DNA of 64,000 nucleotides from the NCBI GenBank assembly GCA_945957125.1, contig CAMFJT010000003.1:8990-72989 (forward strand), given 5' to 3'. Source of the DNA: an uncultured Rhodospirillales bacterium. GTDB taxonomy: Bacteria; Pseudomonadota; Alphaproteobacteria; Reyranellales; Reyranellaceae. The notes below the pieces were generated by a model. It was not told where the DNA came from. It saw nothing but the letters and a program-made list of their open reading frames with translations, and ran no database searches. Below, piece by piece: positions 5,917-41,039 of the stretch. Position 1 is the stretch's first letter. Every line of letters begins with the position of its first letter. The translations under genes were made by a program, and so were the position numbers.

Positions 5917-6050
5917 CGCTACATCGTCCTTTGCCGCCGGGATGGCGCGGCGGGCATCCTGACGGCCAACCGGCTATCGAGACAAGTCCGGGACGGCGCT
6001 CACGAGCGTGCTGGAAGCGCGGTCCAACGAGGCGTCCGATCGAGAAGCGC

Positions 6051-7262: not shown

Positions 7263-7300
7263 GAAGGGGCAATCGGCTCGAATTTTGCTTCCCCGCCGAC

Positions 7301-7957: not shown

Positions 7958-7995
7958 GCGCGGCAAGCTCCGGTCAAGACCAACCGGAGGAAACC

Positions 7996-8970: not shown

Positions 8971-8974
8971 TGCC

Positions 8975-9065
8975 CGGGTCGCTGGGAGCGCGGCTCTCCA
9001 GAACCGCTCATGGGGTGGCGAAACTGAAGAAAGAGCGGCTCTGGAGAGCCGCGCTCCCGGCAGGC
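8975..9065. mobile_element. MITE/REP-like palindromic element flanked by an 8-bp direct repeat
   Basis: The arms are ctgggagcgcggctctccagaaccgctc (8982-9009) and gagcggctctggagagccgcgctcccgg (9033-9060). They are inverted copies with 2 mismatches in 28 nt. The motif ATGATGCC occurs immediately outside on both sides (8967-8974 and 9066-9073). The element is intergenic. Confidence 0.6.
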
Positions 9066-9109
9066 ATGATGCCTCGCCCCGTCCTGTTCGACTGAGTCCG
9101 GAGACCGAC

Positions 9110-10057
9110 ATGCTCGATGCTGAAGCCCGCTTCCTGCTCGACCTGATGGAGCAGGCCGTCAAGGAAGGACGGCCCAAGCTGCAGACCCTGCCCTACGCCC
9201 AGGGCCGCGCCGCGGTCGACAAGATGTCGGAGGACAGCGAGGCCGATCCGCCGGAGGTCGCCGAGACGATCGACGGCACCCTGCCCGGACCGGCCGGCGC
9301 GATCCGCTATCGGCGCTATCGCCCGCTGGGTGTCGAGCCTGGCGCGTTGCCGACCCTGATCTACTATCACGGCGGCGGCTTCGTGATCGGCAACATCGAA
9401 ACGCACGATTCGACCTGCCGGCGGCTGGCCAACCGGAGCCGGTGCCAGGTGATCTCGATCGACTACCGGCTGGCGCCCGAGCATCCCTTCCCCGCCTCGA
9501 CCGACGACTCGATCGCCGCCTTCCGCCATATCCGCGACAATGCCGAAGCGTTCGGCGTCGATCCCAAGCGCATCGCCGTGGGCGGCGATTCGGCGGGCGG
9601 CGCAATCTCCGCCGTGGTCTGCCAGGCCTGCCGGCAAAGCGGCGAGGCGATGCCCGCCTTCCAGATGCTGATCTATCCCGCGACCGATTCGCGGCGGCAG
9701 ACCGAATCGCACAAGGCCTTCGGCGACGGCTATTTCCTGACGCAGGAGCTGATCGACTGGTTCTGGAAGGCGTACATCCCGGCCGGCACCGATCTCACCG
9801 ACCTGCGCCTTTCCCCGCTGCTCGCCGCGGATGTCGCCGGCCTGCCGCCCGCCTTCGTGCTGACCGCCGGCTTCGATCCGTTGCGCGACGAGGGCCGTGC
9901 CTACGCCAACCGCCTGATCGATGCCGGCGTGAAGACGACCTACGTGAACTACCCCGGCACGATCCACGGCTTCTTCTCGCTGACCCGGTTCCTCAAGCAG
10001 GGCCTCAAGGCCAACGACGAGGCGGCGATGGTGATGGCGGCGCATTTCGGGACGTGA
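9110..10057 (+). CDS. Alpha/beta hydrolase, hormone-sensitive-lipase-family esterase
   Basis: The 315-aa ORF carries the HGGGF oxyanion motif (IYYHGGGFVIG) and the GDSAGG nucleophile elbow. It also has DPLRDE and HGF for the catalytic Asp and His. Confidence 0.88.
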   Translation: MLDAEARFLLDLMEQAVKEGRPKLQTLPYAQGRAAVDKMSEDSEADPPEVAETIDGTLPGPAGAIRYRRYRPLGVEPGALPTLIYYHGGGFVIGNIETHDSTCRRLANRSRCQVISIDYRLAPEHPFPASTDDSIAAFRHIRDNAEAFGVDPKRIAVGGDSAGGAISAVVCQACRQSGEAMPAFQMLIYPATDSRRQTESHKAFGDGYFLTQELIDWFWKAYIPAGTDLTDLRLSPLLAADVAGLPPAFVLTAGFDPLRDEGRAYANRLIDAGVKTTYVNYPGTIHGFFSLTRFLKQGLKANDEAAMVMAAHFGT

Positions 10058-10058
10058 G

Positions 10059-10097
10059 CTTGCCGGACCGCGGGCGTCCTGCCCGCGGTCCGGCAAG
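10059..10097. terminator. Perfect 17-bp-stem hairpin between convergent genes (candidate bidirectional terminator)
   Basis: The sequence is cttgccggaccgcgggc-gtcct-gcccgcggtccggcaag. It lies exactly between the esterase stop (10057) and the cyclase stop (10100). Confidence 0.55.
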
Positions 10098-10099
10098 AG

Positions 10100-11887
10100 C
10101 TATGCGCTCGGCAGCACGCGCACGAAACCGACCGGATGGTCGAAGCCCTTGAGGCCGACGCTCTCCTCGCGCGTCGGCACGGATACGAGCAGCGGCTTCA
10201 CGGCCGGATCTTCCGCGACGGCGCGGCTCAAGACGATGTCGCCGCCGGTGCTTTGGCCCTGCAGCCGTGCCGCCATGTTCACGGTCGAGCCGAAATAGTC
10301 GAGCCGGTCGTTCAGGCTCACCATCACGCTGGCGCCGACATGCACGCCGAGCTTGATGGCGAGCGCGCGATCGGCGGGGTTGGCGCGGTTGAAGCCCGCG
10401 ATGCGGGCCTGCATATCGAGCGCCGCGCGCACGGCATCGGCGGGATCGCCGAACGAGGCCATCACCGCGTCGCCTATGGTCTTGACCACCGCGCCGTTGT
10501 GATCGCGCACGATCGAACCCAGGAAAGCGAAGTGCTCGCGCACGATGTTGAACGCCACCGCGTCGCCGACCCGCTCGTAGAGCGCCGTCGAGCCGCGCAG
10601 GTCGGTGAACAGCAGTGCGATCTGCCCGACCGCCGCGTCGTCGCCGGGTCTTAAGGTCGCCTCGGCGAACAGGTCGCGGAAGACCTGCAGCGAGACCACC
10701 TCGGTCGCCGTCAGCGCGTCGCGGGTCCATGTCCTGTCCTCGACCAGCGCGGCGAGCTCGAAATCGGCGTCGTTGGCGAAGCTGATCCTGCCGGGTTCGC
10801 CGCCCGCCATCGCCTCGACGCCCGTCGCCGTCACGCGCAGGCCGGGGAAGGCGCCACCGTCATGCTCGATGTCGGCAACAGCGCCGGGATGCAACGTGCG
10901 CAATCGGTATCGCCCCGGCGGCAAGGCGAGGTCGATCGTGCGCCTCTCGCCCGGCGCCAGCAGGAGCTGGACCGGCACGTGCGGCGTGGCCATCGGGCCG
11001 CTGAGGCAGAAACCGCCGGCCATCAGCGGGCGGATCGCCGGCGCGGGTGCAAAGGCAAGCTCGACATTGCGCTCGAAGTCGCGCGCGTAGTCGATGTTGC
11101 AGGAAGGACAGTGCGCGCCGCGCGGCAGCTCGGCCAGCGACGCAACGCTGAGCTTGGGGCCGCGGCAGTTGGTGCACAGCAGCTCCCACTTCATCGACAA
11201 CAGGCCCGCGCTCACGGCGGCGAGGCAAGCCTCGATGGCCGGCCGTTCAGCGACGCCGAACACCCGCGCCAGTCGCTTGGGCCTGAGGTGCGCGAGGTCG
11301 CTCGCCATGCCCCCAAGGACGTAGTCGCTGAGCCGCTGGCCGAGGCCGTTGCCATAGGGGCTGCCGTCGATCGCGGCCGCCAACGTTGCCGCCCGCTCGC
11401 GAGCGCCAAGCGGCAGCTGCGGCGCCGGCATGTCGAACAGGGTCGGCCGCTCGCCACCGATGAAGGCCACGGCCTGCAGCACACGCTTCTCGACCGCGGC
11501 GCCCGCCTGCTCAGCGAGCTTCCTGCCGGACAGCCGGCCGAGGAGCGTGAGCGGCTCCCAGTCGAGCGCGTAGCTCACCCTGCTGCCGTTCCCCTCCAGC
11601 TCGATATCGAAGATCGGCCCGAAGCGGCGGAACGGTCCCCTGGTGAAGACGCGTGCCTGGCGGAAATGACGCTCCAGGATCCACTCGTACGGCTTCTCCT
11701 CCCAGGCCAACGTGAAGCCCGCCGCCCTGCCGCTGCCGCGGCGCAGCACGGTGCCGTTGGGCTGCGGCGTCTCCTCCAGCACGTAAGGCGGCAACCCCAT
11801 AGCCTCGTTGAAGCGACTGGTGTCCGCGAGCACCGGCCACAGCCGGTCGGGCGGCAGGTCGAAATGCCAGGTCCAGGTGCGCCGCAT
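10100..11887 (-). CDS. Class III adenylate/guanylate cyclase with an N-terminal SRPBCC-like domain and a CxxC..CxxC zinc-ribbon-like segment
   Basis: ORF 10100..11926. The C-terminus (IALLFTDLRGSTALYERVGD...VVKTIGDAVMASF...GVHVGASVMV...DYFGSTVNMAARL) is a class III cyclase domain. The mid region has CTNCRGP...CPSCNIDY. I placed the start at MRRTWTWHF (11887); 11926 is possible. Confidence 0.85.
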   Translation of the reverse strand: MRRTWTWHFDLPPDRLWPVLADTSRFNEAMGLPPYVLEETPQPNGTVLRRGSGRAAGFTLAWEEKPYEWILERHFRQARVFTRGPFRRFGPIFDIELEGNGSRVSYALDWEPLTLLGRLSGRKLAEQAGAAVEKRVLQAVAFIGGERPTLFDMPAPQLPLGARERAATLAAAIDGSPYGNGLGQRLSDYVLGGMASDLAHLRPKRLARVFGVAERPAIEACLAAVSAGLLSMKWELLCTNCRGPKLSVASLAELPRGAHCPSCNIDYARDFERNVELAFAPAPAIRPLMAGGFCLSGPMATPHVPVQLLLAPGERRTIDLALPPGRYRLRTLHPGAVADIEHDGGAFPGLRVTATGVEAMAGGEPGRISFANDADFELAALVEDRTWTRDALTATEVVSLQVFRDLFAEATLRPGDDAAVGQIALLFTDLRGSTALYERVGDAVAFNIVREHFAFLGSIVRDHNGAVVKTIGDAVMASFGDPADAVRAALDMQARIAGFNRANPADRALAIKLGVHVGASVMVSLNDRLDYFGSTVNMAARLQGQSTGGDIVLSRAVAEDPAVKPLLVSVPTREESVGLKGFDHPVGFVRVLPSA

Positions 11888-12085
11888 GCGAGTAATACTG
11901 TAGCGCCCTCCCGGCGGATGTCGCACAGCTCATCACAGCCCGGTGAGGTATCGTGGGATGGCCGCTGACGCCGCCCCGGGCACGATAACTGCCGCGCGTC
12001 GGTATAGCTTGCCCCTCCTGTGGCTCATGATCGCCGGACCCACCGGACCGGCGCGCTCAGCACCGCCGTGCGAATTGGCGTCAAC

Positions 12086-12292
12086 ATGGCTTTGCAGATG
12101 ATCGACGCCGCCGGTGGAACCGACGCCGACTACGAGGCGCTGATGGCGCCTGTGTCGCTCCCGCTGATCGAGCGACGCGATGACTGCCTCACGATCGGCG
12201 ACGCATCGAAAGGCGCCGACGTCGAGGTGAAGCTGTTCGAGGCGACGGGAAAACCGGTCTATCGCGCCGTCGCTCAGGTGCCGAGCAGCTGA
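12086..12292 (+). CDS. Small hypothetical protein (68 aa)
   Basis: This is the inner ATG of ORF 12020..12292 (MALQMIDAAGGTDADYEALMAP...). The codon third positions are GC-rich like the real genes, and it is the only ORF in this gap. No family is recognised and no clear RBS is present. Confidence 0.35.
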   Translation: MALQMIDAAGGTDADYEALMAPVSLPLIERRDDCLTIGDASKGADVEVKLFEATGKPVYRAVAQVPSS

Positions 12293-12360
12293 AGCTTCGC
12301 ATCACGGCAATGAGCCAGCAACGCAAGCACGGTCGATCGGCGATACCCTCGTTCTCGCCG

Positions 12361-12873
12361 TCACTGCACGATGACGCCGCAGGCAATCCTATCGCCGGCA
12401 TTGCCGGCCGGGTCGCTCTTGTAGTCGTCGGCCTTGGCGTGGATGACGATCGCCGAGCCGTCGGCGTCGAACACCGAGTTCGGCTGGCCCTTGACCAGCG
12501 AGATGGCGGGGTTGGCGATCTCGACCACGAGCACGCCGCTCGCCGGGACGTGCAGGTTGGGCATGTCGCCGGCATGGGAGCCCTCGGCCGCTTCCATACC
12601 ATGCTTCTTGCTACCCGGGTTGAAATGCCCGCCGGCGCTGGTGAAGGGCGGCTCGCACTTGCCGACGGCGTGGACATGGAAGGCATGCTCGCCTTCGGGG
12701 ATGCCCGTCAGCGACAGCTTGAGGAGCACGCCGTGCGGGGTCTGGACGAGGTCGACGCTGCCGACATCCTTGCCGGCGGCATCCTTCAGCGGTGCCTTCG
12801 CGGTCTGGGCGTATGCGGGCAGCGACACCAGGCAGGCGACGCCCAACGTAGCGATGATTCGGCTGAAACGCAT
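12361..12873 (-). CDS. sodC: Periplasmic Cu/Zn superoxide dismutase
   Basis: The ATG at 12873 is preceded by GGGAGGAA. The product starts MRFSRIIATLGVACLVSLPAYAQ (signal peptide). It contains HAFHVHAVGKC, GGHFNP, HAGDMPNL and DRIACGVI, which are the classic Cu,Zn-SOD ligand motifs. Confidence 0.92.
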   Translation of the reverse strand: MRFSRIIATLGVACLVSLPAYAQTAKAPLKDAAGKDVGSVDLVQTPHGVLLKLSLTGIPEGEHAFHVHAVGKCEPPFTSAGGHFNPGSKKHGMEAAEGSHAGDMPNLHVPASGVLVVEIANPAISLVKGQPNSVFDADGSAIVIHAKADDYKSDPAGNAGDRIACGVIVQ

Positions 12874-12924
12874 CGTTCCTCCCGTATGATATGCGGTCGC
12901 CACCCTACAGGGAGAGACCCCGCC

Positions 12925-13344
12925 ATGACCACGTCCGATATCGCCTACACGCCCATCCTGCCCGAAGGCTGGGCGCGTCCGCGCGGCTTCTCGCATGCCG
13001 TCGTCGCGACCGGCACGAAGAGCGTGCGCATCGCTGGACAGATCGGTCGCGAACCCGCCCAGGCCCACATTCCCACGGGCACGGATGCGGGCACACAATG
13101 GAAGATCGCGCTCACCAACCTCGTGACCGTTCTGAAAGCGGCCGGCGGGCAGCCCACGCATCTCGTGGCGTTGCGCGCCTACGTCACCGACATCGCGGAG
13201 TTCAACGCCGCCGGCGCCGCGATCGGCGCCGCCTGGGGCGCCACGCTCGGCCGGCATTTCCCGGCGATGACGCTGGTGCAGGTCTCGGCCCTGATCGATC
13301 CCAACGCCAAGGTCGAGATCGAGGCCGACGCGATCCTGCCTTGA
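12925..13344 (+). CDS. RidA/YjgF family reactive-intermediate deaminase-like protein
   Basis: The ATG at 12925 gives MTTSDIAYTPILPEGWARPRGFSHAVVA...VRIAGQIG...LRAYVTD...PAMTLVQVSALIDPNAKVEIEADAIL, a typical RidA fold signature. The rest of track ORF 12310..13344 is antisense to sodC. Confidence 0.85.
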   Translation: MTTSDIAYTPILPEGWARPRGFSHAVVATGTKSVRIAGQIGREPAQAHIPTGTDAGTQWKIALTNLVTVLKAAGGQPTHLVALRAYVTDIAEFNAAGAAIGAAWGATLGRHFPAMTLVQVSALIDPNAKVEIEADAILP

Positions 13345-13408
13345 GCCGGTTCCTGGGGCAGCGGCCTCGTCCGCGGGGAGCGCGCCTCCGGGGCCTCCCC
13401 GTACGAGG

Positions 13409-14272
13409 CTATTTCTTCAGCACGTCGGGGACACGATAGAGCGGGAAGCCGTTGAACGGCTTGGATCGCTCGTGGTCCGGCACCTCGTAGAAGTTGGATT
13501 TGGCGTTGTTGTGCAGCCCACCGTCGACCCGCAACTGGATGCCGGTGACGTAGGCGGCCGCTTCGCTCAGCAGATAGACGATGGCGCCGGCGATCTCGGA
13601 CTCCGTGCCGTGGCGCTTGAGCGGCACCTTGCCCTTCACGTTGCGCAGCACGTCGTGCGCCCGTTCGGGATAGCGGTCGAGCCCGGACGAGGCGATGAAG
13701 CCCGGGATCACCGAGTTGACGCGCACGCCGGAATGGGCCCATTCGACCGAGGCCGTATAAGTGAAGTTCGTCTGGCCGGCGCGCGCCGCCCCGCTATGGC
13801 CCATGCCCGGCATGCCGAGCTCGAAATCGGCGCCGACATTCACGATCGCGCCGCCGTTGTCCTCCATGCAGCGGAGGTAGACCTCCTTCGACATCAGGAA
13901 GGTCGCGGTCATGTTGTTGCGGATCACCGCGTTCCAGCCGTTGAGCGAGATGTCCCGGAGCGGTGCCGGGAACTGGCCGCCGGCATTGTTCACCAGCCCG
14001 TCGATCCGGCCGCCCCACCTCATCACACCGTCGACCGCCGCCTTCACCTGGTCTTCCTCGCGCAGGTCGGCGGCGAAGGTGAAGGTGTCGGGATCGCCGA
14101 GTTCCTCCTTCACGCGATCGAGCTTCTCCTGCGTGCGGCCGATCAGCGCCAGCCGCGCACCGAGCGACCGCAGCTCGTGCGCGGTGCAACGGCCGAGTCC
14201 CGAGCCGCCGCCGGTGACGACGATGGTCTGGCCCTCGAACAGGCCGGGCCGGAAGATGGAATGATAATGCAT
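13409..14272 (-). CDS. SDR family oxidoreductase (enoyl/ketoacyl reductase-like)
   Basis: The 287-aa ORF has VVTGGGSGLGR (the TGxxxGxG motif) and NNAGG. The overall length is typical of a classical SDR. Confidence 0.85.
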   Translation of the reverse strand: MHYHSIFRPGLFEGQTIVVTGGGSGLGRCTAHELRSLGARLALIGRTQEKLDRVKEELGDPDTFTFAADLREEDQVKAAVDGVMRWGGRIDGLVNNAGGQFPAPLRDISLNGWNAVIRNNMTATFLMSKEVYLRCMEDNGGAIVNVGADFELGMPGMGHSGAARAGQTNFTYTASVEWAHSGVRVNSVIPGFIASSGLDRYPERAHDVLRNVKGKVPLKRHGTESEIAGAIVYLLSEAAAYVTGIQLRVDGGLHNNAKSNFYEVPDHERSKPFNGFPLYRVPDVLKK

Positions 14273-14320
14273 GGTTCACCGATTCCCTCGCCCTTCGGAG
14301 AGCTTCCGCGCCCGGCAGGA

Positions 14321-15298
14321 CTACTCGATCTTGATGTTGGCCGCCTTCACGACCTCGGCCCATTTGGCCATCTCCGCGCGCAGGAAGGCGGCCAGCTCCT
14401 GAGGCGTCGAGCCGATCGCATCGGCGCCGAGATCGGCGAACTTCGCCTTGATGTCGTCCGCGCGCATGATCTTCGCCATCTCGGCGTGAAGACGCGCGAT
14501 CACCGCCGGCGGCGTGCCGGCCGGGGCGAGCAGCGCGTTCCATTCGGAGATCTCGCAGTCCTTCACGCCGGCTTCGGCCATGGTCGGTACGTCGGGCGCG
14601 GCCGGCGAGCGCTGGGCGCTGGTGACGGCCAGTGCCCGCACGCGGCCGGCGCGAGCTTGCGGCAGCGCCGCCGACATGTTGCCGAAGTAGAACGGCACGT
14701 GCCCCGCCGCCACGTCGGCTACCGCCGGACCGCCGCCCTTGTAGGGCACATGGCCGATATCGGTGCCGGTGCGCAGCTTGAAAAGCTCGGCAGCGAGATG
14801 CTGGGCACTGCCGTTGCCGGAGGAAGCGTAGAAGAGCTTGCCCGGCTGCGCCTTGGCCATCGCCACCAGCTCCGCGACCGTCTTGGCCGGGTGCGACGGC
14901 GTGATCACCAGCAGCTCGGGCACGGTGACCAGCAGCGATACCGGCGCGAAGTCGTCGGGCGTGCGGAACGGCATCTTCGCGAGCAGCGACGGATTGACCG
15001 CATGGGCGAAGGCGCCGATCAGCAGGGTGTGGCCGTCGGGCGACGCCTTGGCGACCGTCTCGTCGCCGATCACGCCACCCGCGCCTGGCTTGTTGTCGAT
15101 CACGACGGTTTCGCCCAGCGCCTCCTGCAGCCGCGGCGCGATCAGCCGGGCCGTGGTGTCGGCGCCGCCGCCCGGCGAATAGGGCACGACGAGCCGAACC
15201 GGCCGGTTCGGAAAGGACTGCGCACGCACGTGCGGCGCGACGATCGAGAGCGCCGCGCCGAGCATGATGTCGCGGCGCGAGGGGGTGGCGAGCCTCAT
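14321..15298 (-). CDS. Bug/TctC-family substrate-binding protein (last gene of the ATGA-chained operon)
   Basis: The 325-aa ORF has a signal peptide (MRLATPSRRDIMLGAALSIVAPHVRAQ) followed by PNRPVRLVVPYSPGGGADT...SGNGSAQHLA...HVPYKGGGPA. Its start overlaps the upstream stop (ATGA, 15295-15298). Confidence 0.9.
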   Translation of the reverse strand: MRLATPSRRDIMLGAALSIVAPHVRAQSFPNRPVRLVVPYSPGGGADTTARLIAPRLQEALGETVVIDNKPGAGGVIGDETVAKASPDGHTLLIGAFAHAVNPSLLAKMPFRTPDDFAPVSLLVTVPELLVITPSHPAKTVAELVAMAKAQPGKLFYASSGNGSAQHLAAELFKLRTGTDIGHVPYKGGGPAVADVAAGHVPFYFGNMSAALPQARAGRVRALAVTSAQRSPAAPDVPTMAEAGVKDCEISEWNALLAPAGTPPAVIARLHAEMAKIMRADDIKAKFADLGADAIGSTPQELAAFLRAEMAKWAEVVKAANIKIE

Positions 15299-15927
15299 GC
15301 CGCCATCGTTCGCCGGCCGAGCTCGCGCTGCAGCCAGCGCATGAGGGCCAGCCCGAGCTGGAGCGGGACGCCGAACAGCACGATGCCGATGGCGAAGACG
15401 ACCAGGCGTTGGCCGAGCGTGGGCAGCAGCGCCGCTTCGCGCAGGATCATCGAAATGCCCTCGGGAACGCCGATTGCCGCCGCCGCGCCCGACGACATCA
15501 CGATGACGAAGAAGGCGCGGGTGACGTTGGGCAGGAACAGCAGCGCCCCGAGCGGCGAACCGCGGCGCAGCTGACGCAGCGCCTCGACGCCGGCGTCGGC
15601 CACATAGGCCGCCGAATAGGGAACCAGGGAAACCGCGACCGTCATGACGCCGGACATCGCGAGCTTGACGCCGAACAGGCTGAGATCACGCAGGACGTTG
15701 AGCAGGAAGAACATCACCACGAAAGTGGGCGCCGCGCGCATCAGCGCGATGATCGTGGCCGACACGCCGACGCCAACCCCGCCGCCACGATCGCGCAGCA
15801 GCGCGAGCGGCAGGCCGATGGCGAGGCCGAGCGCGAGCGCGATGAACGAGATCTCGAAGTTCGTCACCATGGCCGACAGCAGCGTCGGCACGAAGTCGGT
15901 CCACAGCTCGTGCAGGAACGCGCTCAT
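15295..15927 (-). CDS. Polar amino-acid-type ABC transporter permease (HisM/HisQ-like)
   Basis: The inner ATG at 15927 gives MSAFLHELWTDFVPTLLSAMVTNFEISFIALALGLAIG...MRAAPTFVVMFFLLNVL. The protein has 5-6 hydrophobic spans. An ATGA overlap with the upstream gene lies at 15924-15927. Confidence 0.8.
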   Translation of the reverse strand: MSAFLHELWTDFVPTLLSAMVTNFEISFIALALGLAIGLPLALLRDRGGGVGVGVSATIIALMRAAPTFVVMFFLLNVLRDLSLFGVKLAMSGVMTVAVSLVPYSAAYVADAGVEALRQLRRGSPLGALLFLPNVTRAFFVIVMSSGAAAAIGVPEGISMILREAALLPTLGQRLVVFAIGIVLFGVPLQLGLALMRWLQRELGRRTMAA

Positions 15928-33232: not shown

Positions 33233-34837
33233 ATGCTGCTGTCCCGTCGTCTCGCGCTCGGCCTTGCCGGCGCCTCAGCCCTGCCGCGCTTCGCCATCGG
33301 CCAGTCGGACAACCGGCCGAGCCTCACCGTCGCCGTGCAGAAGATCTCAACGTCCAACACGCTGGAACCGATGCGCGAGCAGTCGAATGTCGGCCAGCGC
33401 GTCTTCTACACCTTCGCCGAGACGCTGACCGACCATGCCTGGACCGGCGACCTGGCGCTGCGGCCAGGCCTCGCCGAAAGCTTCCGGCGCATCGACGGGC
33501 GCACGCTCGAGCTCACGTTGCGCCCCAACGTGCGCTTTCACAACGGCGACAGCATGACAGCGGAGGACGTGGCCTTCAGCTTCGGGCCGCAGCGCATGTG
33601 GACCGGCAGCTCGGTCGACACGCGCGGCATGTGGACCAACAGCACGCCGGGCCTGGCCAGCAAGGTGCCGCCGCCGGAAGCGCCCAAGATCGCCATGGCC
33701 GCCTATCCCGGCTTCGAGCGCATGGAGATCGTCGACAAGCGCACCGTGCGGTTCGTCAACCGCGTGCCCGACGCCACGCTCGAAGGCCGGCTGACCCGCA
33801 ACACCGGCGTGATCCTGTCCGAGCGCGCCTTCGCCGAGGCGCCGACCTGGCTCGACTGGTCGCGCAAGCCGGTGGGCACCGGCCCCTATCGCATCGTCGA
33901 GTACAAGCCCGACGTCGAGCTCGTCCTCGAGGCGTTCGACGACTATTGGGGCGGCCGGCCGCCGATCAAGCGGCTGCGCTTCGTCGAGGTGCCCGAGGTC
34001 GCCTCGCGCATCAACGGCCTGCGCGCCGGCGACTTCGACTTCGCCTGCGACATGCCGCCGGACCAGATCGCCGCGATCGAATCCAACCCGAAGCTGGAAG
34101 TTGTCGGCGGGCCGATCATGAACATTCGCCTCACCATCTTCGACAAGCACCATCCGGTGCTGAAGGACCCGCGCGTGCGCCGCGCGATGACCCACGCAAT
34201 CGACCGCCAGGCGATCGTCGATGCGCTGTGGGCGGGCCGCACCCGGGTGCCGAAGGGGCTGCAATGGGACTTCTTCGGTCCGATGCTGCTCTCCGACTGG
34301 GCGCCGCCGGCATTCGATCCCGCCGCAGCGAAGCAGCTCCTCAAGGACGCCGGCTACGACGGCGCACCGATCCCCTACCAGATGCTGAACAACTACTACA
34401 CCAACCAGCTCCAGACCGCGCAGATCATGGTCGAGCAGTGGAAGGCGGTCGGCCTCAACGTCGCGATCGAGATGAAGGAGAACTGGGCCCAGATCCTCGG
34501 CCGCTTTCCCGGACGCGGCATCTGCGAGAACTCGAACTCGTCGTGGTTCAACGATCCGGTGGCCTCGCTGTCGGCCTACGCGCCGGGCGGGCAGACCTGG
34601 GAGGCGGGCCAATGGGAGAACGAGGAGATCGTCGGGCTCAACCGCGCGCTGCAGGACAGCACCGACCTCGACAAGCGGCGCACCGACTTCCGCCGCATGT
34701 TGACGATCCTGGAGCGAGAGGACCCCTGCTACAACGTCATCCACCAGAACGCGACGTTCACCGCCAAGCGCCGCGACTACAAATGGCGCCCCGCGCAGTC
34801 CTTCGTCGTCGACTTCCGCGCGAGCAACTGGGGGTGA
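33233..34837 (+). CDS. ABC transporter substrate-binding protein, family 5 (peptide/nickel/opine type), orphan
   Basis: The 534-aa ORF has a signal peptide (MLLSRRLALGLAGASALPRFAIGQ). The family-5 pattern includes LRPNVRFHNGDSMTAEDVAFSF, GTGPYRIVEYKPD and RRAMTHAIDRQAIVDAL. No permease or ATPase genes are adjacent. Confidence 0.85.
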   Translation: MLLSRRLALGLAGASALPRFAIGQSDNRPSLTVAVQKISTSNTLEPMREQSNVGQRVFYTFAETLTDHAWTGDLALRPGLAESFRRIDGRTLELTLRPNVRFHNGDSMTAEDVAFSFGPQRMWTGSSVDTRGMWTNSTPGLASKVPPPEAPKIAMAAYPGFERMEIVDKRTVRFVNRVPDATLEGRLTRNTGVILSERAFAEAPTWLDWSRKPVGTGPYRIVEYKPDVELVLEAFDDYWGGRPPIKRLRFVEVPEVASRINGLRAGDFDFACDMPPDQIAAIESNPKLEVVGGPIMNIRLTIFDKHHPVLKDPRVRRAMTHAIDRQAIVDALWAGRTRVPKGLQWDFFGPMLLSDWAPPAFDPAAAKQLLKDAGYDGAPIPYQMLNNYYTNQLQTAQIMVEQWKAVGLNVAIEMKENWAQILGRFPGRGICENSNSSWFNDPVASLSAYAPGGQTWEAGQWENEEIVGLNRALQDSTDLDKRRTDFRRMLTILEREDPCYNVIHQNATFTAKRRDYKWRPAQSFVVDFRASNWG

Positions 34838-34910
34838 GCATTTTCCTTGGACCGCGAACTTCGATCTCGCTCTCGCTCATGAGCGCACAGGATGCGCGCG
34901 GTCCGATGAG

Positions 34911-35333
34911 TCAGACCGTCTTCCACTGCACGAGCGTGTATCCTTCGTGCGGCTCGAACACGGCTTCGACCTCCGCGCCGATCCTCACCTCCTGATGGGG
35001 ATCGCCCAGCAGATTGCCGAGCATGCGGACATTGCCCGCGTCGGGCAGCTCGACCAGCACGACGATGTAGGGGCCGTGCCCCTTCAACGCCGGATGCACC
35101 GGATGCCACGGCCGCTCCCAGCTGTAGATGCGGCCCTTGCCCGACACCTTGTGCCAGTCCAGGTCGAAGCTCAGGCACTTGTGGCAGATCCATTCCGGTC
35201 CCCACAGGAACGTGCCGCACTTGCGGCAGCGCTGGACCATCAGCTCGCCGCGGCGCGTGGCCTCCCAGTACGGCTTGTCGAGCCCATCGTTCTCCGGCAC
35301 CGGGACCGGCAGGCCGTTCGGCAGGTAGCTCAT
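34911..35333 (-). CDS. Zn-ribbon/OB-fold protein (DUF35 family)
   Basis: The inner ATG at 35333 gives MSYLPNGLPVPVPENDGLDKPYWEATRRGELMVQRCRKCGTFLWGPEWICHKCLS...GKGRIYSW. This is the rubredoxin-like CxxC..CxxC motif plus an OB fold. An ATGA overlap with the upstream gene lies at 35330-35333. Confidence 0.88.
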   Translation of the reverse strand: MSYLPNGLPVPVPENDGLDKPYWEATRRGELMVQRCRKCGTFLWGPEWICHKCLSFDLDWHKVSGKGRIYSWERPWHPVHPALKGHGPYIVVLVELPDAGNVRMLGNLLGDPHQEVRIGAEVEAVFEPHEGYTLVQWKTV

Positions 35334-36511
35334 AGCGTGGCCTCCGAGCCCAGGATCATGCTCGACACCGGCGTCACCATCGGTCCGGCGATCACCAGGG
35401 CGACGTTCGCGTCCTTCACCTGCGCCGTCGACTGGCCGCGCAGCTGGCGCACCGCCTCGACCTGCAGCTCGAGCCCGTGCATGTAGCATTCGGCCAGGTT
35501 GCCACCCGAGGTGTTGAGCGGCAGCTTGCCCGACGGCGCCATCAGGTTCTCCGGCGTGAGGAAATCGTTGGCCTCCTCGGCCGTGAAGAAGCCGTGCTCG
35601 ACCAGGCTCATCAGCACACCGCCGGTGAAGTTCTCGTAGGATTGCACGACATCGACATCGGACGGCTTCACGCGGGCCATGTCGTAGAGCTGCGGCGCCA
35701 CGGTCGTGAAGCTCGACGTGGCGTAGAGCGGCGCATTGTGGACGCGCGCGCCGTTGCGATGTTCCGAACCCTGGGTCGCGCCCAGCAGATAGGCCGGCTT
35801 GTGCCGGAAATCCTTCGCCTCCTCCGCGGGCACGAGGATCAACGCCGCCGCGCCGTCATTCTCCTGGCAGCAGTCGAACAGCCGCCACGGCTCGACGATC
35901 CAGCGGGAGTTGTCGTACGCCTCCTCGGTCAGCGGCCGGCCGTACATCACCGCACGCGGGTTGGATTGCGCGTGATGGTAGGAGGCGAGCGCGATGGCGC
36001 GTTGCGCCGACGGCGCGATGCCGTTGTCGTGCAGGAAGCGCATCGCCCGCATGGCGTAGCGCTGGCCCGGCGAGAACACGCCGTAGGGCGCATTGAACGC
36101 GTTCTCGCCCGAGGCTGTCCCGCCGGGCGCCGCCATGCCGAAGCGCTGGAACTGGCCCTGCGCCAGGGCGCGGAACACCACGACGCAGTTGGCGATGCCG
36201 CACGCCACTGCCGCGGCCGCATTGCCGACGGCGGCCGCCGCGCCTCCACCCCCGCCGCCCCAGTTCATGTTGGAGAAGCGCAAGGCCGGCAGGCCGAGCG
36301 CCGCCGCCAGACGCGACGGGTCGTTGCGGTCGTTGGAGTAGGAGGCGAAGCCGTCGATGCGGCGCGGATCGATGCCGGCATCCTCACAAGCCGCGAGCGT
36401 CGCCTGCAGCGCCAGCTTGAACTCCGACACCGGCGACTTGCCGTGCTTGTAATAGGGCGTCTCGCCGACGCCCACGACGGCGACCTGGCCGCGAAGGGTG
36501 CGCTGGCTCAT
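35330..36511 (-). CDS. Thiolase-fold (SCP-x/Ltp-like) protein lacking the usual nucleophilic cysteine
   Basis: The ATG at 36511 gives MSQRTLRGQVAVVGVGETPYYKHG... and NTSGGNLAECYMHG, both thiolase-like. Where thiolases carry C(A/G)SG, about 17 residues before the Gxx(D/N) turn, this protein reads [33 protein letters not shown]. Only the last 393 aa of track ORF 35330..38032 are real. Confidence 0.8.
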   Translation of the reverse strand: MSQRTLRGQVAVVGVGETPYYKHGKSPVSEFKLALQATLAACEDAGIDPRRIDGFASYSNDRNDPSRLAAALGLPALRFSNMNWGGGGGGAAAAVGNAAAAVACGIANCVVVFRALAQGQFQRFGMAAPGGTASGENAFNAPYGVFSPGQRYAMRAMRFLHDNGIAPSAQRAIALASYHHAQSNPRAVMYGRPLTEEAYDNSRWIVEPWRLFDCCQENDGAAALILVPAEEAKDFRHKPAYLLGATQGSEHRNGARVHNAPLYATSSFTTVAPQLYDMARVKPSDVDVVQSYENFTGGVLMSLVEHGFFTAEEANDFLTPENLMAPSGKLPLNTSGGNLAECYMHGLELQVEAVRQLRGQSTAQVKDANVALVIAGPMVTPVSSMILGSEATL

Positions 36512-37707
36512 GGACGATACTTCGCCGGCACGTCGAGGCCGAGGAAGCGGGCGCAGTTCAGGCCCAGCACCTTGGCGCGTGCGCCGTCGGAAAGCTGCCC
36601 CATGGTGCGCTCGATTGCCTCCGCCGAATGCGGCCAGGTCCCTTCGTGGTGCGGATAGTCGTTCGCCCACATGAAATTGTCGGCGAGATTGTGGCTCTCG
36701 GCGAGATCGAGCCCCGCCTTGTCCTCCTGGAAGGAGGAGAAGCCGTGCATGCGGTAATATTCGCTGGGCAGGTGCTTGAGCTTGGGCCGCACCCAGAAGT
36801 GATGCTTCTTGTAGGCCTCGTCCATCGCCTCCATCAGCCACGGCACCCAGCCGATGCCGGCCTCGATGGTCGCGAAGCGCAGGGTCGGGAAACGCTCGAG
36901 CACGCCGGAGGCGCAGAGGTTGGCCACCGGCTCGATGGTCGGCGACAGCGAATGCGAGACGTAGTTCACCACCGCCCCGCCGTTGCCGCGTGCGGCGCGA
37001 GGATCGCGGCCGGTCGAGACATGAAAGGTGATCGGCAGGTTGGCGTCGGTGATCGCCGCCCACAGCGGATCGAAATGCGGCAGGTTGTAGTTCACATGGC
37101 CGCTGTCGTGCGCGCCCCACACCGGCTTGCACGGCAGGGTCAGGCACTTGAAGCCGAGCTTCGCCAGCCGCTGGACCTCGGCGATCGAGCCTTCGAGGTC
37201 GGCGGTGGCGAGCGAGCCCGCGGGAATCATGCGATCCTGGTGGGTGCCGAACTGTTCCCACGCCCAGTCGTTCCACACCCGGCACTGCGCCATCGCGAAC
37301 TGCGGATCGGGCGTCGCCCACATCGCGAGGCCCTTGTTGGGAAAGATCAGCTCGACGTCGATGCCGTCGAGATCGTGATCGGCCAGCCGGCCGAGCGGAT
37401 CGGCGCCCGCCTTGTTGCGCGCCTGGTCCTCGCCCTCGAGCGTCGATAGCCGCAGCCGGTCGGGTCGATGGCCCTCGCTCACCCGCCACTGCACGCCGTC
37501 CTTGTCGGTGATGACCCGCGGCAGGCGGTCCTTGTACTTCGCCTCGATCCGCTCGACCCACAGGTTGGCCGGCTCGTTGGCGTGGCCGTCGGCGGAGACC
37601 ATGAAATACTTCCTGGCGGCATCCGGCCGCGCGCTGCGCGACCAGCCGGTGGCGCCGGGAGATTCGAGGCGCCAGCGGTTGGGCTCGTTGACGACGATAT
37701 GGTTCAT
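36508..37707 (-). CDS. Amidohydrolase_2 family metal-dependent hydrolase/decarboxylase (ACMSD/LigW-like)
   Basis: The ATG at 37707 is preceded by GGAGGAAGC. The product reads MNHIVVNEPNRW...YFMVSADGHANEP (metal-binding His), ITFHVSTG and MWANDYPHHEGTW. There are ATGA overlaps at both ends (37704-37707 and 36508-36511). Confidence 0.8.
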   Translation of the reverse strand: MNHIVVNEPNRWRLESPGATGWSRSARPDAARKYFMVSADGHANEPANLWVERIEAKYKDRLPRVITDKDGVQWRVSEGHRPDRLRLSTLEGEDQARNKAGADPLGRLADHDLDGIDVELIFPNKGLAMWATPDPQFAMAQCRVWNDWAWEQFGTHQDRMIPAGSLATADLEGSIAEVQRLAKLGFKCLTLPCKPVWGAHDSGHVNYNLPHFDPLWAAITDANLPITFHVSTGRDPRAARGNGGAVVNYVSHSLSPTIEPVANLCASGVLERFPTLRFATIEAGIGWVPWLMEAMDEAYKKHHFWVRPKLKHLPSEYYRMHGFSSFQEDKAGLDLAESHNLADNFMWANDYPHHEGTWPHSAEAIERTMGQLSDGARAKVLGLNCARFLGLDVPAKYRP

Positions 37708-38177
37708 CGCTTCCTCCGTTTCGACGGTTGCTCGGCCGCTGCTTGCGGCTCTTCCATTTCCCGTTCGAGCGTCTGCAGCACGCGCTCGCAAGTCTCGAGG
37801 TCCACCAACGGCACGCCGGCGAGCAGCCGCTTCTGGAAGTCGTTGCCGATCCGGGCGGCCCGGACCGCAAGCTCGCGGCCGGATTTGGTGAGGTGGATGC
37901 CCCGCGCGCGACGATCGCTCTCGTCCTCGCGGCGCGCGATGAAGCCGCGCCGTTCGAGATTGTCGAGCAGGCGAACCAACGAGGGGCCCTCGATCGACAT
38001 CGCGGTCGCGAGCTCCTTCTGGCGCACGCCATCGCCCAGCGAACGGACGTACATCAACGGACGCCATGTCGCCTCGGTCAGCCCGATCAGCCGCATCTCG
38101 GCATCGACCGCCTGGCGCATGCGCCGCGCGATACGGGCCACGAGGAATCCGAATTCGGTGTGCCGATCGCCAGTCAT
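37704..38177 (-). CDS. MarR family transcriptional regulator
   Basis: The 157-aa ORF has a winged-helix segment (LGDGVRQKELATAMSIEGPSLVRLLDNLERRGFIARREDESDRRARGIHLT). Confidence 0.88.
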   Translation of the reverse strand: MTGDRHTEFGFLVARIARRMRQAVDAEMRLIGLTEATWRPLMYVRSLGDGVRQKELATAMSIEGPSLVRLLDNLERRGFIARREDESDRRARGIHLTKSGRELAVRAARIGNDFQKRLLAGVPLVDLETCERVLQTLEREMEEPQAAAEQPSKRRKR

Positions 38178-38198
38178 CCCAAAAAGATAGGACGCTAC

Positions 38199-40439
38199 TT
38201 ATCTATTCGGCAAGCCCCGGATCGCCCGCCACACCCGCTCGGGTGAGCAGGGCATGTCGATGTGGGTGACGCCGAATTCGGCAAGTGCGTCGACCACCGC
38301 GTTCACGATCACCCCGAGCGCCGGCGTGATGCCGCCCTCCCCGCCGCCGCGCATGCCGAGGGGATGCGTCGTCGACGGCACCTCGGACAGCGCCGTGACG
38401 AAGCGCGGGAAATCGTCGGCGTGAGGCATGGCGTAGTCCATGAACGAGCCCGACAGGAGCTGGCCGTCGCCGTCGTAGACCATGCGCTCCATCAGCGCCT
38501 GCCCCGCCCCCTGCGCGATGCCGCCGTGCGTCTGGCCGTGCAGGATCAGCGGGTTCACCGCGCGGCCGACATCGTCGATGGTGGTGTAGCGGTCGAGCCG
38601 CACGACGCCGGTCTCGGCATCGATCTCGACCTCGCAGACATGCCACCCGTACGGATAGGCGCCGACCCGGCTGTCGACCTCGCCGGCATCGGCGATCGGG
38701 CCATGCCGCGCGGCGAGCTCGACGAGAGTCACACCGCGGTCCGTGCCCTTCACGGTGAACCGGCCGTCGGCGAAGGCGATGTCGGCTTCGCTCGCCTCGA
38801 GCTGCGCAGCCGCGAGCACCGTGCCCTTGGCGACGATGCCCTGCGCGGCCTTGTGGATGGTCGTGCCGGCCTGGCGCATCGAGCGGCCGGAATGCGAGCC
38901 GCCGCCCACCCCGAGGCGGTCGCTGTCGCTGCTCTCGACCGTGACGCTCCGAGCCGGAATACCGAGCCACTCCTCGACGAGCTGCGCGAAGCTCGTGGCA
39001 TGGCCCTGTCCGGCCGACAGCGTGCCAATCAGCACCTCGACCGTGCCATCGGCGCGCACCGTCACCTCCGCCCGCTCCTGCGGCGCACCGCTCTGCGATT
39101 CGATGTAGCCGCCGAGCCCGAGGCCGCGCCTCAGCCCGCGCGCAGCCGACTCCTCCTGCCGCGCGGCAAAGCCGTTCCAGTCGGCGAGCTTCAACACCGC
39201 GTCGAACGTGCCGGCATAGTCGCCGCTGTCGTAAGTCACGCCGAAGGCGTTGCGATAGGGCGTCGAGCGGATCAGGTTGCGGCGGCGCAGCTCGACCCGA
39301 TCGAAACCGTGCTCGCGCGCAGCCATGTCGATCAGCCGCTCGATCACGAACATGGTTTCGGGCCGGCCGGCGCTGCGATAGGGCGCGGTCGATTGCGTGT
39401 TGCTCAGCACCGCGCGCGCCCGCGCCGTCGCCGGCATGTCGTAGACGCTGGTCATGAGCTGTGTGCCCTTGGTCAGCGGGATGTAGGAAGCGGTATAGGC
39501 TCCGACATTGCTGATCGCCGTCGCATGCAGGCCGACGAACCGGCCGTCGGCCGATAGCGCCAGCTCCGATTCGACCCGCAGGTCGCGGCCGGCGTAATCG
39601 CTGGCAAACGCCTCGCCGCGCTCGCAGGTCCATTTGACGGGCCGGTCGACCTTCTTCGCCGCCCAGGCGACCAGCACGAACTCGGGATAGAGGTAGTTGC
39701 GCGTGCCGAAGTTGCCGCCGGTCTCGCGCGCGACGACGCGCACCTGCTCCGGCTCCAGCCCGAGGATGTACGCCAGCTCCTTCTTCGGACGCACGACCGC
39801 GCCGCCACCGGCGTAGAGCGTGTAGCGGCCGGTTTCCGCCGCGTATTCCCCCAGGGCCGCGCGCGGCTCCATCGGCACGCCAGCGATGCGCTGGATGTCG
39901 GTCTCGATCCGCACGATGTATTCTGCTTCGGCAAAACCGTCGCGCGTCGCCCGCGGGTTGCCGACCCGGGCATCGACCGCGATATCGGTCATCGGCGGCA
40001 GGCCCTCGTACGCCACGTCGATGACTTCCGCGGCGTCCTTGGCCTGGGCCACGGTCCCGGCGACGACGAAGGCGACGGCCTCGCCCACGAAGCGCACGCT
40101 GTCCGTCGCCAGGACCATCGGCCGCTCGAGCAGGTGCGGCGAGCCGTCGAGATTGTCGAGCCGGATGTCGGGCGGGCTCATCGCCTGCGGCATGTGCGGG
40201 ATCGGCTTCAGCCCCTCGGCCAGGACGTCGGCGCCGGTCAGGACCAGCAGCACGCCGGGCATCTTCCGCGCCGCCTCGGCATCGACCGAGACGAGGCGCG
40301 CGTGGGCGTGCGTCGAGCGCAGCACGACTCCGTGCGCCTGGCCGGGAAGCGTGAAGTCGTCGGAGTAGCAGCCGCCCCCGGTCAGCAGCCGCGCATCCTC
40401 CAGCCGCGGCAGGGACGCGCCGATGCCGTTGGCAGCCAT
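38199..40439 (-). CDS. Xanthine dehydrogenase/aldehyde oxidase-family molybdopterin-binding large subunit (CoxL form-II-like)
   Basis: The 746-aa ORF reads MAANGIGASLPRLEDARLLTGGGCYSDD... and GGNFGTR. The active-site loop is STAPYRSAGRPE, compared with AYRGAGR in form-II CoxL-like proteins. GGGEGGITPAL lies near the C-terminus. No FeS (CoxS) or FAD (CoxM) subunit genes are adjacent. Confidence 0.88.
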   Translation of the reverse strand: MAANGIGASLPRLEDARLLTGGGCYSDDFTLPGQAHGVVLRSTHAHARLVSVDAEAARKMPGVLLVLTGADVLAEGLKPIPHMPQAMSPPDIRLDNLDGSPHLLERPMVLATDSVRFVGEAVAFVVAGTVAQAKDAAEVIDVAYEGLPPMTDIAVDARVGNPRATRDGFAEAEYIVRIETDIQRIAGVPMEPRAALGEYAAETGRYTLYAGGGAVVRPKKELAYILGLEPEQVRVVARETGGNFGTRNYLYPEFVLVAWAAKKVDRPVKWTCERGEAFASDYAGRDLRVESELALSADGRFVGLHATAISNVGAYTASYIPLTKGTQLMTSVYDMPATARARAVLSNTQSTAPYRSAGRPETMFVIERLIDMAAREHGFDRVELRRRNLIRSTPYRNAFGVTYDSGDYAGTFDAVLKLADWNGFAARQEESAARGLRRGLGLGGYIESQSGAPQERAEVTVRADGTVEVLIGTLSAGQGHATSFAQLVEEWLGIPARSVTVESSDSDRLGVGGGSHSGRSMRQAGTTIHKAAQGIVAKGTVLAAAQLEASEADIAFADGRFTVKGTDRGVTLVELAARHGPIADAGEVDSRVGAYPYGWHVCEVEIDAETGVVRLDRYTTIDDVGRAVNPLILHGQTHGGIAQGAGQALMERMVYDGDGQLLSGSFMDYAMPHADDFPRFVTALSEVPSTTHPLGMRGGGEGGITPALGVIVNAVVDALAEFGVTHIDMPCSPERVWRAIRGLPNR

Positions 40440-40442
40440 GCG

Positions 40443-41021
40443 CTACAGCGCCGTCGGCAACGGAACGTTCAGCATCAGCCCGAGCTCGGTCCGCAAATCG
40501 CAGCTCACGCGGCCGTGCACCTTGCCCTGCTTGTCGAAATAGCGGCCGCTCGGCGCGGTCGGGAACGGGCCTTCGTGCCAGACATCGGCGTGGAGATAGA
40601 TGCCGAAGCTGCCGTCCGACCAGAAGGCGACGAACTTCTCCGGCGCGGGATCCTCGCCGGGCGGGCCGGCCGGCACGACGAACGGCCGCCCGTCGACCGG
40701 CCAGAAGAACTGCCCGCCGTCAGGATGGTAGTTGACGTGCCAGAGATGGACGTGGCCCGGCGCAGTGCGGTAGCCGAGCACGTAATCGCCGCCGACCGCC
40801 GCGTTGACGCCGCGCAATTCGTCGCCCTGCCATTCGCAGGCGAAGATGCCCTCGGTCGTGCCGCCCTCGTCGCCGGTGCCGGGATCGAGCCGGCGATGGC
40901 CCTTCACCGGCCAGGGCACGATGTGCACCTTGTGGGTCTTCGGATCGTGCACGATCTCACCAAAGCCCTTGAGGCTTTCGGGCGTGGCGCGCAGCAGCGG
41001 AACGTCGATAAGGCGTGTCAT
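40443..41021 (-). CDS. Ureidoglycolate lyase (AllA)-family cupin protein
   Basis: ORF 40443..41039. The ATG at 41021 gives MTRLIDVPLLRATPESLKGFGEIVHD, the usual N-terminus of the family. The beta-rich cupin body includes HVNYHPDGGQFFWP. The stop is 3 nt from the CoxL-like start. Confidence 0.7.
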   Translation of the reverse strand: MTRLIDVPLLRATPESLKGFGEIVHDPKTHKVHIVPWPVKGHRRLDPGTGDEGGTTEGIFACEWQGDELRGVNAAVGGDYVLGYRTAPGHVHLWHVNYHPDGGQFFWPVDGRPFVVPAGPPGEDPAPEKFVAFWSDGSFGIYLHADVWHEGPFPTAPSGRYFDKQGKVHGRVSCDLRTELGLMLNVPLPTAL

Positions 41022-41039
41022 CGCGATAGCTTGCAGCAA

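Follow-up and report, generated by a model that had tools for sequence, protein, structure and literature searches.

The four-gene cassette and its products

The stretch of DNA analysed here, hereafter the window, is a segment of 64,000 nucleotides from an uncultured member of the Reyranellaceae (contig CAMFJT010000003.1), and our subject is a compact cassette of four genes on its minus strand. The first gene encodes a MarR-family regulator of 157 residues (37704-38177; Pfam MarR_2, E 1e-11, and MarR, E 4e-11). It is followed on the same strand by the gene of a putative PtmU3-type amidohydrolase-related dinuclear oxygenase (ARO; 36508-37707; 399 residues), which we propose to be a hydroxylase of the beta-carbon C-H of acyl-coenzyme A (acyl-CoA) esters; by the gene of a thiolase-fold protein that lacks the catalytic Cys and is a candidate retro-aldolase of the Ltp2 type (35330-36511; 393 residues); and by a stand-alone DUF35 gene whose product combines a Cys4 zinc ribbon with an OB fold (34911-35333; 140 residues). 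Three ATGA stop/start overlaps, each checked in the sequence, join the four genes, and a promoter/operator-like element of 37 nucleotides (38178-38214, minus strand), conserved in the cassette copies, abuts the marR ATG. An earlier, sequence-only reading of this DNA had described the same four minus-strand genes as MarR, amidohydrolase_2, thiolase-like and DUF35, and the open reading frames, Pfam matches and overlaps all agree with that layout.

The same reading took the second protein for a metal-dependent amidohydrolase of the ACMSD/LigW type, and it does fall within PF04909 (Amidohydro_2; E 3.7e-26, residues 96-391), but this assignment has to be revised. Its closest solved match is PtmU3 (6OMP; E 1.8e-64, 221 bits, residues 33-370), followed by DitZ, four SfbO-type proteins and AibH2, whereas LigW (E 2e-12), gamma-resorcylate decarboxylase and ACMSD (E 6e-5) match it weakly (E 2e-12 to 1e-4). 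AROs oxidise C-H bonds with O2 at a pair of redox-active metal ions (Fe2 or Mn/Fe) and carry a signature of two motifs, an N-terminal D-x-H in the first beta strand, which provides ligands of metal site 1, and a C-terminal D-x-P-H-x-D/E, which has some 200 residues or more in front of it and provides those of site 2, and both are reported to be missing from every characterised hydrolase or decarboxylase of PF04909 (PMC13154177); the metal ligands of AibH2 are listed in PMC7782822. The window protein has the first motif as D40-G-H42, aligned to D-S-H of PtmU3, and the second, towards its C-terminus, as D350-Y-P-H-H-E355, in which the terminal Glu is the PtmU3 variant, while H229 and E282 fall opposite the equivalent His and Glu in the PtmU3 alignment. 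In a family alignment of 20 diverse relatives H42, H229, E282, D350, P352 and H353 are invariant and D40 is nearly so, and all seven ligands of the dinuclear site are conserved. The published rule for telling Fe2 from Mn/Fe centres does not apply cleanly here: D-x-H has Gly at its variable position, where PtmU3 has Ser, and P-H-x-E has His. By its motifs and its best solved match, then, the 'amidohydrolase' is to be classed as a PtmU3-type ARO. A LigW/ACMSD-type decarboxylase or hydratase, whose single metal is bound by N-terminal motifs of another kind than D-x-H and which has no D-x-P-H-x-D/E loop, was rejected as its identity, since both ARO motifs are present and the PtmU3 match is better by about 50 orders of magnitude. 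A conserved N-terminal extension of about 32 residues (N-x-W-R-L-E-x-P-G...W), which might serve as a docking segment, is common to the oxygenase and to relatives at 48-60% identity but is missing from PtmU3 and from more distant AROs.

The third protein is matched by Pfam Thiolase_C_1 (E 1e-27) and by Thiolase_N at only 1e-3, under the Pfam cut-off. Its top solved match is TcLtp2 (6OK1_A; E 9e-76, 258 bits), with CtSal (114 bits), BbsB (E 1e-18) and PhlC (E 2e-14) all weaker. The region that in thiolases contains the nucleophile is occupied by W84, a run of six glycines (G85-G90) and A91-A94, and a HMMER alignment to a true archaeal thiolase, 7YVY, places the nucleophilic Cys on G86; gap placement may shift in a stretch of such low complexity, yet every plausible position, from G86 to G88, is Gly. 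The replacement of the nucleophile by glycine, which the sequence-only reading had deduced from a manual alignment, is thus upheld. Cys residues occur at positions 42, 104, 109, 214, 215 and 342, and C104 and C109, which had been named as examples of a Cys that a proper alignment might place at the nucleophile, lie at least 14 residues downstream of the nucleophile region and align with non-catalytic positions of TcLtp2. The second thiolase Cys, that of the HDCF motif of SCP-x thiolases, is gone as well, the protein reading YENF with Asn at the Cys position.

The two catalytic tyrosines of TcLtp2 have been retained. According to PMC12329534, TcLtp2 has Gly at the nucleophile position and works with Tyr294, in its YDHF motif, as the base and with Tyr344 as the acid. 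In the window protein Y292 (Y292-E-N-F) aligns with TcLtp2 Y294 (Y294-D-H-F), and Y343, within A-E-C-Y-M-H-G, aligns with Y344 within G-E-A-Y-I-H-G, so that the kinship with Cys-less retro-aldolases suggested earlier is borne out both by the top match and by the two catalytic Tyr. The Gly run and both Tyr motifs are kept in all orthologues of at least 58% identity that were examined over those columns, and the second Tyr also in two pairs at about 35-44% identity. Thiolase-like genes of at least 44% identity that stand beside related oxygenases keep the Gly run wherever the segment was read, Tyr-x-x-Phe in every case and the second Tyr wherever that column was read; homologues with a canonical Cys, whose appearance in the same operon context would have told against an aldolase, were not encountered among these. 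Together the alignments support classing the protein as a Cys-less relative of the Ltp2-type retro-aldolases. We call it Ltp2-like rather than an Ltp2 orthologue, because it falls below the cut-off of PRK07855, the NCBIfam model nearest Ltp2, and no steroid genes lie nearby.

The DUF35 protein consists of the Pfam domains zf-ChsH2 and OB_ChsH2_C, with the zinc-ribbon Cys4 intact (C36, C39, C50 and C53), and its top solved matches are ChsH2(DUF35) (6OK1_B; E 6e-16) and then the DUF35 domain of CtShy (9MYR_B). At nearly all orthologous loci whose sequence could be followed on that side, its gene is the neighbour of the thiolase-like gene, and we presume its product to be the structural partner of the aldolase candidate. 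The pairing of a thiolase-fold gene with a DUF35 gene that had been recognised from the sequence therefore stands, with the two genes overlapping by ATGA and both products matching the TcLtp2-ChsH2(DUF35) structure best.

Conservation, promoter-like element and surroundings

Twelve of the 24 genomes sampled in the Reyranella-like genus have an orthologue of the oxygenase, and precisely these twelve also have one of the aldolase. The order MarR-oxygenase-aldolase-DUF35 is constant in the seven genomes read over 18-20 kb, with differing flanks, and the oxygenase is 89-93% identical across the genus. The recurrence of one gene order in half of these genomes, amid flanks that differ, means that the arrangement is not due to chance, and the cassette moves as one unit. 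Two relatives show irregularities that are possible frameshifts or assembly errors: the oxygenase match at locus L015 (genome G005, 10605-11480) covers residues 106-398 only, and the aldolase at L024 (8001-10395) is found as two overlapping matches. In two Reyranella genomes (L014 and L018) the cassette ends against a convergent operon with acyl-CoA genes, comprising an enoyl-CoA hydratase, two family-I CoA-transferase subunits, an acyl-CoA dehydrogenase, a GntR regulator and a TctC receptor. This operon is a possible source of CoA activation, although it is not linked to the cassette in the window.

The regulator is the least conserved of the four proteins (64-76% identity among the genus copies compared), and its closest NCBIfam model is SlyA, under the cut-off of that model. 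The 37-nucleotide element in front of its gene can be aligned in all 12 cassette copies compared, while the DNA further upstream is unrelated. It contains a -35-like TTGCCG at 38213-38208 (TTGCCG/A among copies) and a -10-like TATCTT at 38189-38184 that ends 6 nucleotides before the marR ATG. These hexamers match the consensus at 8 of 12 positions in the window and at 9 of 12 in most relatives, and a scan for consensus sigma-70 promoters with a threshold of 9/12 reported none at the element, so that a promoter is read here from conservation and from hexamer matches of 8-9 of 12. The position of the -10-like box, so close to the start codon, suggests a leaderless marR mRNA, and the element as a whole suggests the promoter/operator of a leaderless and autoregulated marR gene. 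MarR control of the cassette is plausible, and the conserved promoter/operator-like element travels with it.

The element also overlaps the last codons of the gene upstream, whose stop codon falls inside it. That gene (38199-41039) encodes a large subunit of the xanthine-dehydrogenase family with MoCoBD domains; it has no small or FAD subunit adjoining it, is preceded by a ureidoglycolate-lyase-like cupin gene, and is missing beside most other cassette copies. This molybdenum-enzyme gene, together with the neighbouring solute-binding protein and TetR/hydroxylase genes, was considered as part of the cassette and rejected, because the flanking genes are absent at other copies. The statement in the sequence-only reading that no CoA ligase, MaoC hydratase or acyl-CoA dehydrogenase is nearby proved accurate for the ten neighbouring frames scanned (28.7-44 kb of the window), and among the neighbouring frames there is likewise no terpene synthase, polyketide synthase (PKS) or nonribosomal peptide synthetase (NRPS) gene. 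The cassette itself does not encode a hydratase.

DNA nearly identical to window positions 34800-38300 (0.7-0.99 of sampled words) is present in activated-sludge, fish-gut and synthetic-community metagenomes from three studies. Metatranscriptome contigs that are 90-97% alike cover the oxygenase, aldolase and DUF35 genes in two activated-sludge runs of one study, and no contig in the same two runs covers marR. These contigs are short, derive from related strains, may include DNA and define no transcript start, and we regard them as a weak sign of expression.

Partner exchange around the aldolase

The setting of the oxygenase was compared over 80 loci from species-representative genomes, for which counts of neighbouring families are minimum figures, since gene calling was incomplete at several lower-GC loci. 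Orthologues at 50-73% identity are found in Alpha-, Gamma- and 'Delta'-proteobacteria, Binatia, Acidimicrobiia and Dehalococcoidia. Among the neighbours of AROs are enoyl-CoA hydratases (24 loci), acyl-CoA dehydrogenases (21), short-chain dehydrogenases/reductases (SDR; 21) and luciferase-like monooxygenases (18), with CoA-transferase III (7), AMP-ligases (5) and P450s (5) in smaller numbers. Related AROs thus sit in an acyl-CoA gene setting, and the aromatic or keto-acid substrate envisaged in the sequence-only reading finds no support, both the characterised relatives and the gene neighbourhoods pointing to acyl-CoA thioesters. Where oxygenase, aldolase and DUF35 genes stand together they do so in two orders, with the oxygenase first in Reyranellaceae and last, as aldolase-DUF35-oxygenase, in other lineages.

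Two Streptomyces loci (L079 and L081, about 3258-14204) contain an orthologue of PtmU3 itself (about 65-70% identity by eye; E 4e-132 to 6OMP) with a thiolase/DUF35 pair nearby. They also include an SDR, a GNAT-fused ADP-forming CoA ligase, a luciferase-like monooxygenase, a 4HBT thioesterase and acyl-CoA dehydrogenases, and such a cluster probably serves for platensimycin-like tailoring or for degradation. The notion that the PtmU3 gene cluster already holds a cassette of ARO and Cys-less aldolase was rejected, because the thiolase at both loci contains Cys.

The complementary comparison started from the aldolase, in evenly drawn samples of 400 Pseudomonadota, of which 6 gave a match, and of 400 Alphaproteobacteria, of which 19 did, and our partner counts cover 16 orthologous aldolase/DUF35 loci outside the genus, at 58% identity or above. 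The WGGGGGG motif is present wherever the segment was examined, and a DUF35 gene is adjacent in all 16. The next gene, by contrast, varies: it encodes an ARO at seven loci, a Rieske oxygenase (LigXa_C) at three, a luciferase-like monooxygenase at two, and an enoyl-CoA hydratase and a MaoC-type hydratase at one each, and it is unclear at two. The constant element is therefore the aldolase/DUF35 pair, and each variable partner identified could install a hydroxyl group.

The three loci with a Rieske partner, all from other Pseudomonadota, have no ARO; a reductase or ferredoxin gene stands beside the oxygenase in two of them, and a CoA-transferase III gene is close in two and farther off at the third, L109. 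At L107 (5760-11003) the Rieske gene, an FNR-type reductase, CoA-transferase III, aldolase and DUF35 form an operon; at L108 (9343-14397) CoA-transferase III lies beside the Rieske gene together with the aldolase/DUF35 pair; and at L109 (8900-12840) the pair is accompanied by the Rieske gene and a small [2Fe-2S] ferredoxin. More distant pairs (43-46% identity) occur in P450-DUF35-aldolase-aldehyde dehydrogenase operons (L111, 7913-12191, and L144, 6393-10606), where the aldehyde dehydrogenase would fit an aldehyde product of the aldolase; in the thiolase-like protein of L111 the second Tyr is Phe. A further locus, L145 (genome G485, 3182-15688), has five thiolase-like genes in one 17-kb stretch, four of them with DUF35 beside them, as well as CoA-transferases and an AMP-ligase.

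Proposed mechanism, rival readings and significance

Beta-oxidation cannot pass a carbon that is fully substituted or hindered, and such carbons are frequent in terpenoids, in resin and naphthenic acids and in branched synthetic acids. We propose that the oxygenase of the cassette makes a beta-hydroxyacyl-CoA and that the aldolase/DUF35 pair cleaves it, the whole being a self-contained unit under MarR control, and we consider this probable, if well short of assured. The input would be an acyl-CoA whose normal beta-oxidation is blocked. The PtmU3-type two-metal oxygenase would use O2 and an electron donor to hydroxylate the C-H of the beta-carbon, to judge from its closest characterised relative, and would in this way replace the work of a dehydrogenase and a hydratase; such direct beta-hydroxylation would be needed where full substitution of the alpha-carbon, or some other hindrance at the site, stands in the way. 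The Cys-less Ltp2-type protein, held by DUF35, would then cut the bond between C-alpha and C-beta by a retro-aldol reaction, as homology and the conserved catalytic residues indicate, with Y292 deprotonating the beta-hydroxyl and Y343 protonating the enolate, and would release a carbonyl product (an aldehyde or ketone) along with a shortened acyl-CoA. From the conserved element, which overlaps the marR promoter, MarR would repress the cassette in the absence of its ligand, possibly the acid to be degraded or the CoA ester of that acid, and CoA activation would be encoded elsewhere in the genome. As to the substrate we can only speculate that alpha-quaternary or alicyclic acids, of the terpenoid or neo-acid type, fit the chemistry best. 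Of the compact module for C-C bond chemistry that had been read from the sequence, the Cys-less aldolase/DUF35 pair remains, while its partner has changed from a LigW/ACMSD-type enzyme to what is by its motifs a dinuclear oxygenase.

Each half of this scheme has a characterised counterpart. PtmU3 of Streptomyces platensis, from platensimycin/platencin biosynthesis (6OMP-6OMR), belongs to the same ARO superfamily and shares with the window oxygenase the PF04909 TIM barrel, both motifs, the His and Glu ligands and a setting among acyl-CoA genes; PMC7782822 describes it as a beta-hydroxylase that accepts CoA-ligated diterpenoid substrates. The window protein differs in its N-terminal segment, in the Gly within D-x-H and in the His within D-x-P-H-x-E, and it is encoded in a MarR-controlled cassette and coupled to a Cys-less aldolase, whereas PtmU3 belongs to a biosynthetic cluster. 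It has no Rieske ferredoxin neighbour, which is reported to be usual for the high-potential (diiron) group of AROs. On the aldolase side the best solved match of both window proteins is TcLtp2-ChsH2(DUF35), the steroid C3 side-chain aldolase of Thermomonospora curvata (6OK1), which likewise combines a thiolase fold without nucleophilic Cys, two catalytic Tyr and a DUF35 partner. There, however, DUF35 is the C-terminal domain of a MaoC hydratase and not a separate small protein, the hydroxyl group comes from a hydratase and not, as we suppose for the window, from an oxygenase, and the motif is YDHF and not YENF. The aldolase of that system forms an obligate complex with its DUF35 domain and acts on a steroid-CoA beside ChsE/ChsH hydratase partners, whereas no steroid-catabolic genes are found near the window cassette. 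CtSal-CtShy(DUF35), the bile-acid C5 side-chain aldolase of Comamonas testosteroni (9MYR), is also Cys-less, with Gly at the nucleophile and a DUF35 partner, but Sal relies on Tyr302/Cys304 (YDCY), with Gln in place of the second Tyr; the window protein shows the Ltp2 pattern.

The chemical logic, too, has precedents. In platensimycin biosynthesis, as set out in PMC13599519, hydroxylation by PtmU3 at a hindered C5-H prepares the retro-aldol opening of ring A, and the (-)-Ambrox route of Sphingomonas, which the same text deduces from metabolites, proceeds alike from a CoA ester through hydroxylation of a hindered beta C-H beside a quaternary alpha-carbon to retro-aldol cleavage. The Ambrox route postulates a monooxygenase and an aldolase without genes (PMC13599519), and the window cassette offers genes without a known substrate. 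Our full-text search of the literature found no paper that joins an ARO with an Ltp2-type aldolase/DUF35 pair, and none that assigns catabolic genes to a route of oxygenase beta-hydroxylation and retro-aldol cleavage. Both enzyme families and the logic of the reaction have therefore been described before, and what the window adds is the minimal, MarR-controlled form of the cassette, its perfect co-occurrence within the genus, the conserved promoter element and the exchange of oxygenase classes around one aldolase.

Several observations weigh against successive action of the oxygenase and the aldolase, or against parts of that reading. Adjacency cannot show that two enzymes act consecutively, and the cassette has neither a CoA ligase or transferase nor a reductase or ferredoxin. 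A Cys-less aldolase with DUF35 lies within 8 kb at only 8 of 27 loci of ARO orthologues (at least 50% identity, with at least 4 kb readable on both sides) and at 1 of 33 for AROs below 50% identity, and the oxygenase is consequently not tied to the aldolase. Even the PtmU3 precedent comes without an Ltp2-type aldolase, given that the thiolase near the Streptomyces PtmU3 orthologues keeps its nucleophilic Cys in an NGCATAG motif. DitZ, a characterised ARO, has been studied with dehydroabietic acid, and some AROs thus take free acids. In the aldolase candidate the oxyanion-hole His296 of TcLtp2 is replaced by Asn and the Asp of YDHF by Glu (some related thiolase-like/DUF35 pairs carry YDHF or YEHF), and its PRK07855 score is 359 bits against a cut-off of 469.

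The main alternative is that the two enzymes serve the same pathway at steps that do not follow one another, the oxygenase hydroxylating a remote position of the substrate, demethylating it or decarboxylating it oxidatively, perhaps as the free acid, and a hydratase encoded elsewhere making the beta-hydroxyacyl-CoA. We think this unlikely, but it deserves serious consideration: the ARO orthologues lack the aldolase at 19 of 27 loci, characterised AROs take diverse substrates, free acids included, and the LigXa-type Rieske and P450 families that replace the ARO at some loci include O-demethylases. The host genome, moreover, presumably encodes many enoyl-CoA hydratases. Yet the aldolase needs a beta-hydroxyl group, and compact operons such as the ARO cassette of the window and the Rieske operon of L107 contain no hydratase, while the closest characterised relative of the oxygenase beta-hydroxylates CoA esters. 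That a hydratase is itself the partner at some loci points to one role shared by all the partners, which counts further against non-consecutive steps. Hydroxylation followed directly by aldol cleavage, on the other hand, predicts just such an exchangeable partner able to install a hydroxyl, and a partner of this kind explains the compact operons without a hydratase.

To the other alternatives we give much less weight. An anabolic use, in the direction of aldol condensation or in the tailoring of a secondary metabolite as by PtmU3, is improbable: PtmU3 is indeed biosynthetic and aldolases are reversible, but the cassette stands alone with its MarR repressor, away from any terpene synthase, PKS or NRPS gene in the neighbouring frames, its related loci are dominated by genes of the beta-oxidation type, transporters and aldehyde dehydrogenase, and the DNA occurs in activated-sludge and other metagenomes. 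We find still less to commend a LigW/ACMSD-type decarboxylase or LigJ-type hydratase that shares an aromatic or keto-acid substrate with the aldolase. The protein does belong to PF04909, with weak matches to LigW, gamma-resorcylate decarboxylase and ACMSD, and it would be chemically sensible for a LigJ-type hydratase to feed an aldolase, but the ARO motifs, the seven conserved ligands and the far stronger matches to dinuclear oxygenases speak against it. Scarcely credible, finally, is a thiolase-like protein that remains a thiolase or acyltransferase with another nucleophile. BbsAB, the archaeal thiolase/HMG-CoA synthase/DUF35 complex and PhlABC do have thiolase-fold and stand-alone DUF35 genes side by side, as in the window, and the six Cys of the window protein could be thought to offer a substitute; but those enzymes keep their catalytic Cys, for thiolysis, Claisen condensation or acyl transfer, and resemble the window protein at E 1e-18 or worse, far below TcLtp2. 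Both canonical Cys positions are Gly or Asn in the window protein, and it is the Gly run and the two Tyr that its orthologues keep.

The preferred reading, that the oxygenase hydroxylates and the aldolase/DUF35 pair cleaves, invites a broader one that we advance tentatively, with slightly more doubt than conviction: that Ltp2-type aldolase/DUF35 pairs are the constant core of a widespread, modular system of C-C cleavage for CoA esters that cannot be beta-oxidised, the beta-hydroxyl being installed by whichever ARO, Rieske oxygenase, P450, flavin monooxygenase or hydratase suits the substrate, and the ARO version supplying the missing genes of the ring-opening route. Among the compounds degraded by that route there may also be alpha-quaternary pollutants of activated sludge.

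One antibiotic pathway has been shown to couple beta-hydroxylation by an oxygenase to retro-aldol cleavage, and for one terpenoid degrader the same has been deduced from metabolites. The cassette, with three enzymes and a regulator in a tightly conserved arrangement that should be simple to express, is a minimal candidate for this chemistry. Its recognition as such would correct the routine misannotation of these proteins as 'amidohydrolase' and 'acetyl-CoA acetyltransferase', would extend the Ltp2-type aldolases beyond steroids and would offer a pair of C-H hydroxylase and aldolase for biocatalysis, while the large ARO superfamily would gain a testable role in catabolism.

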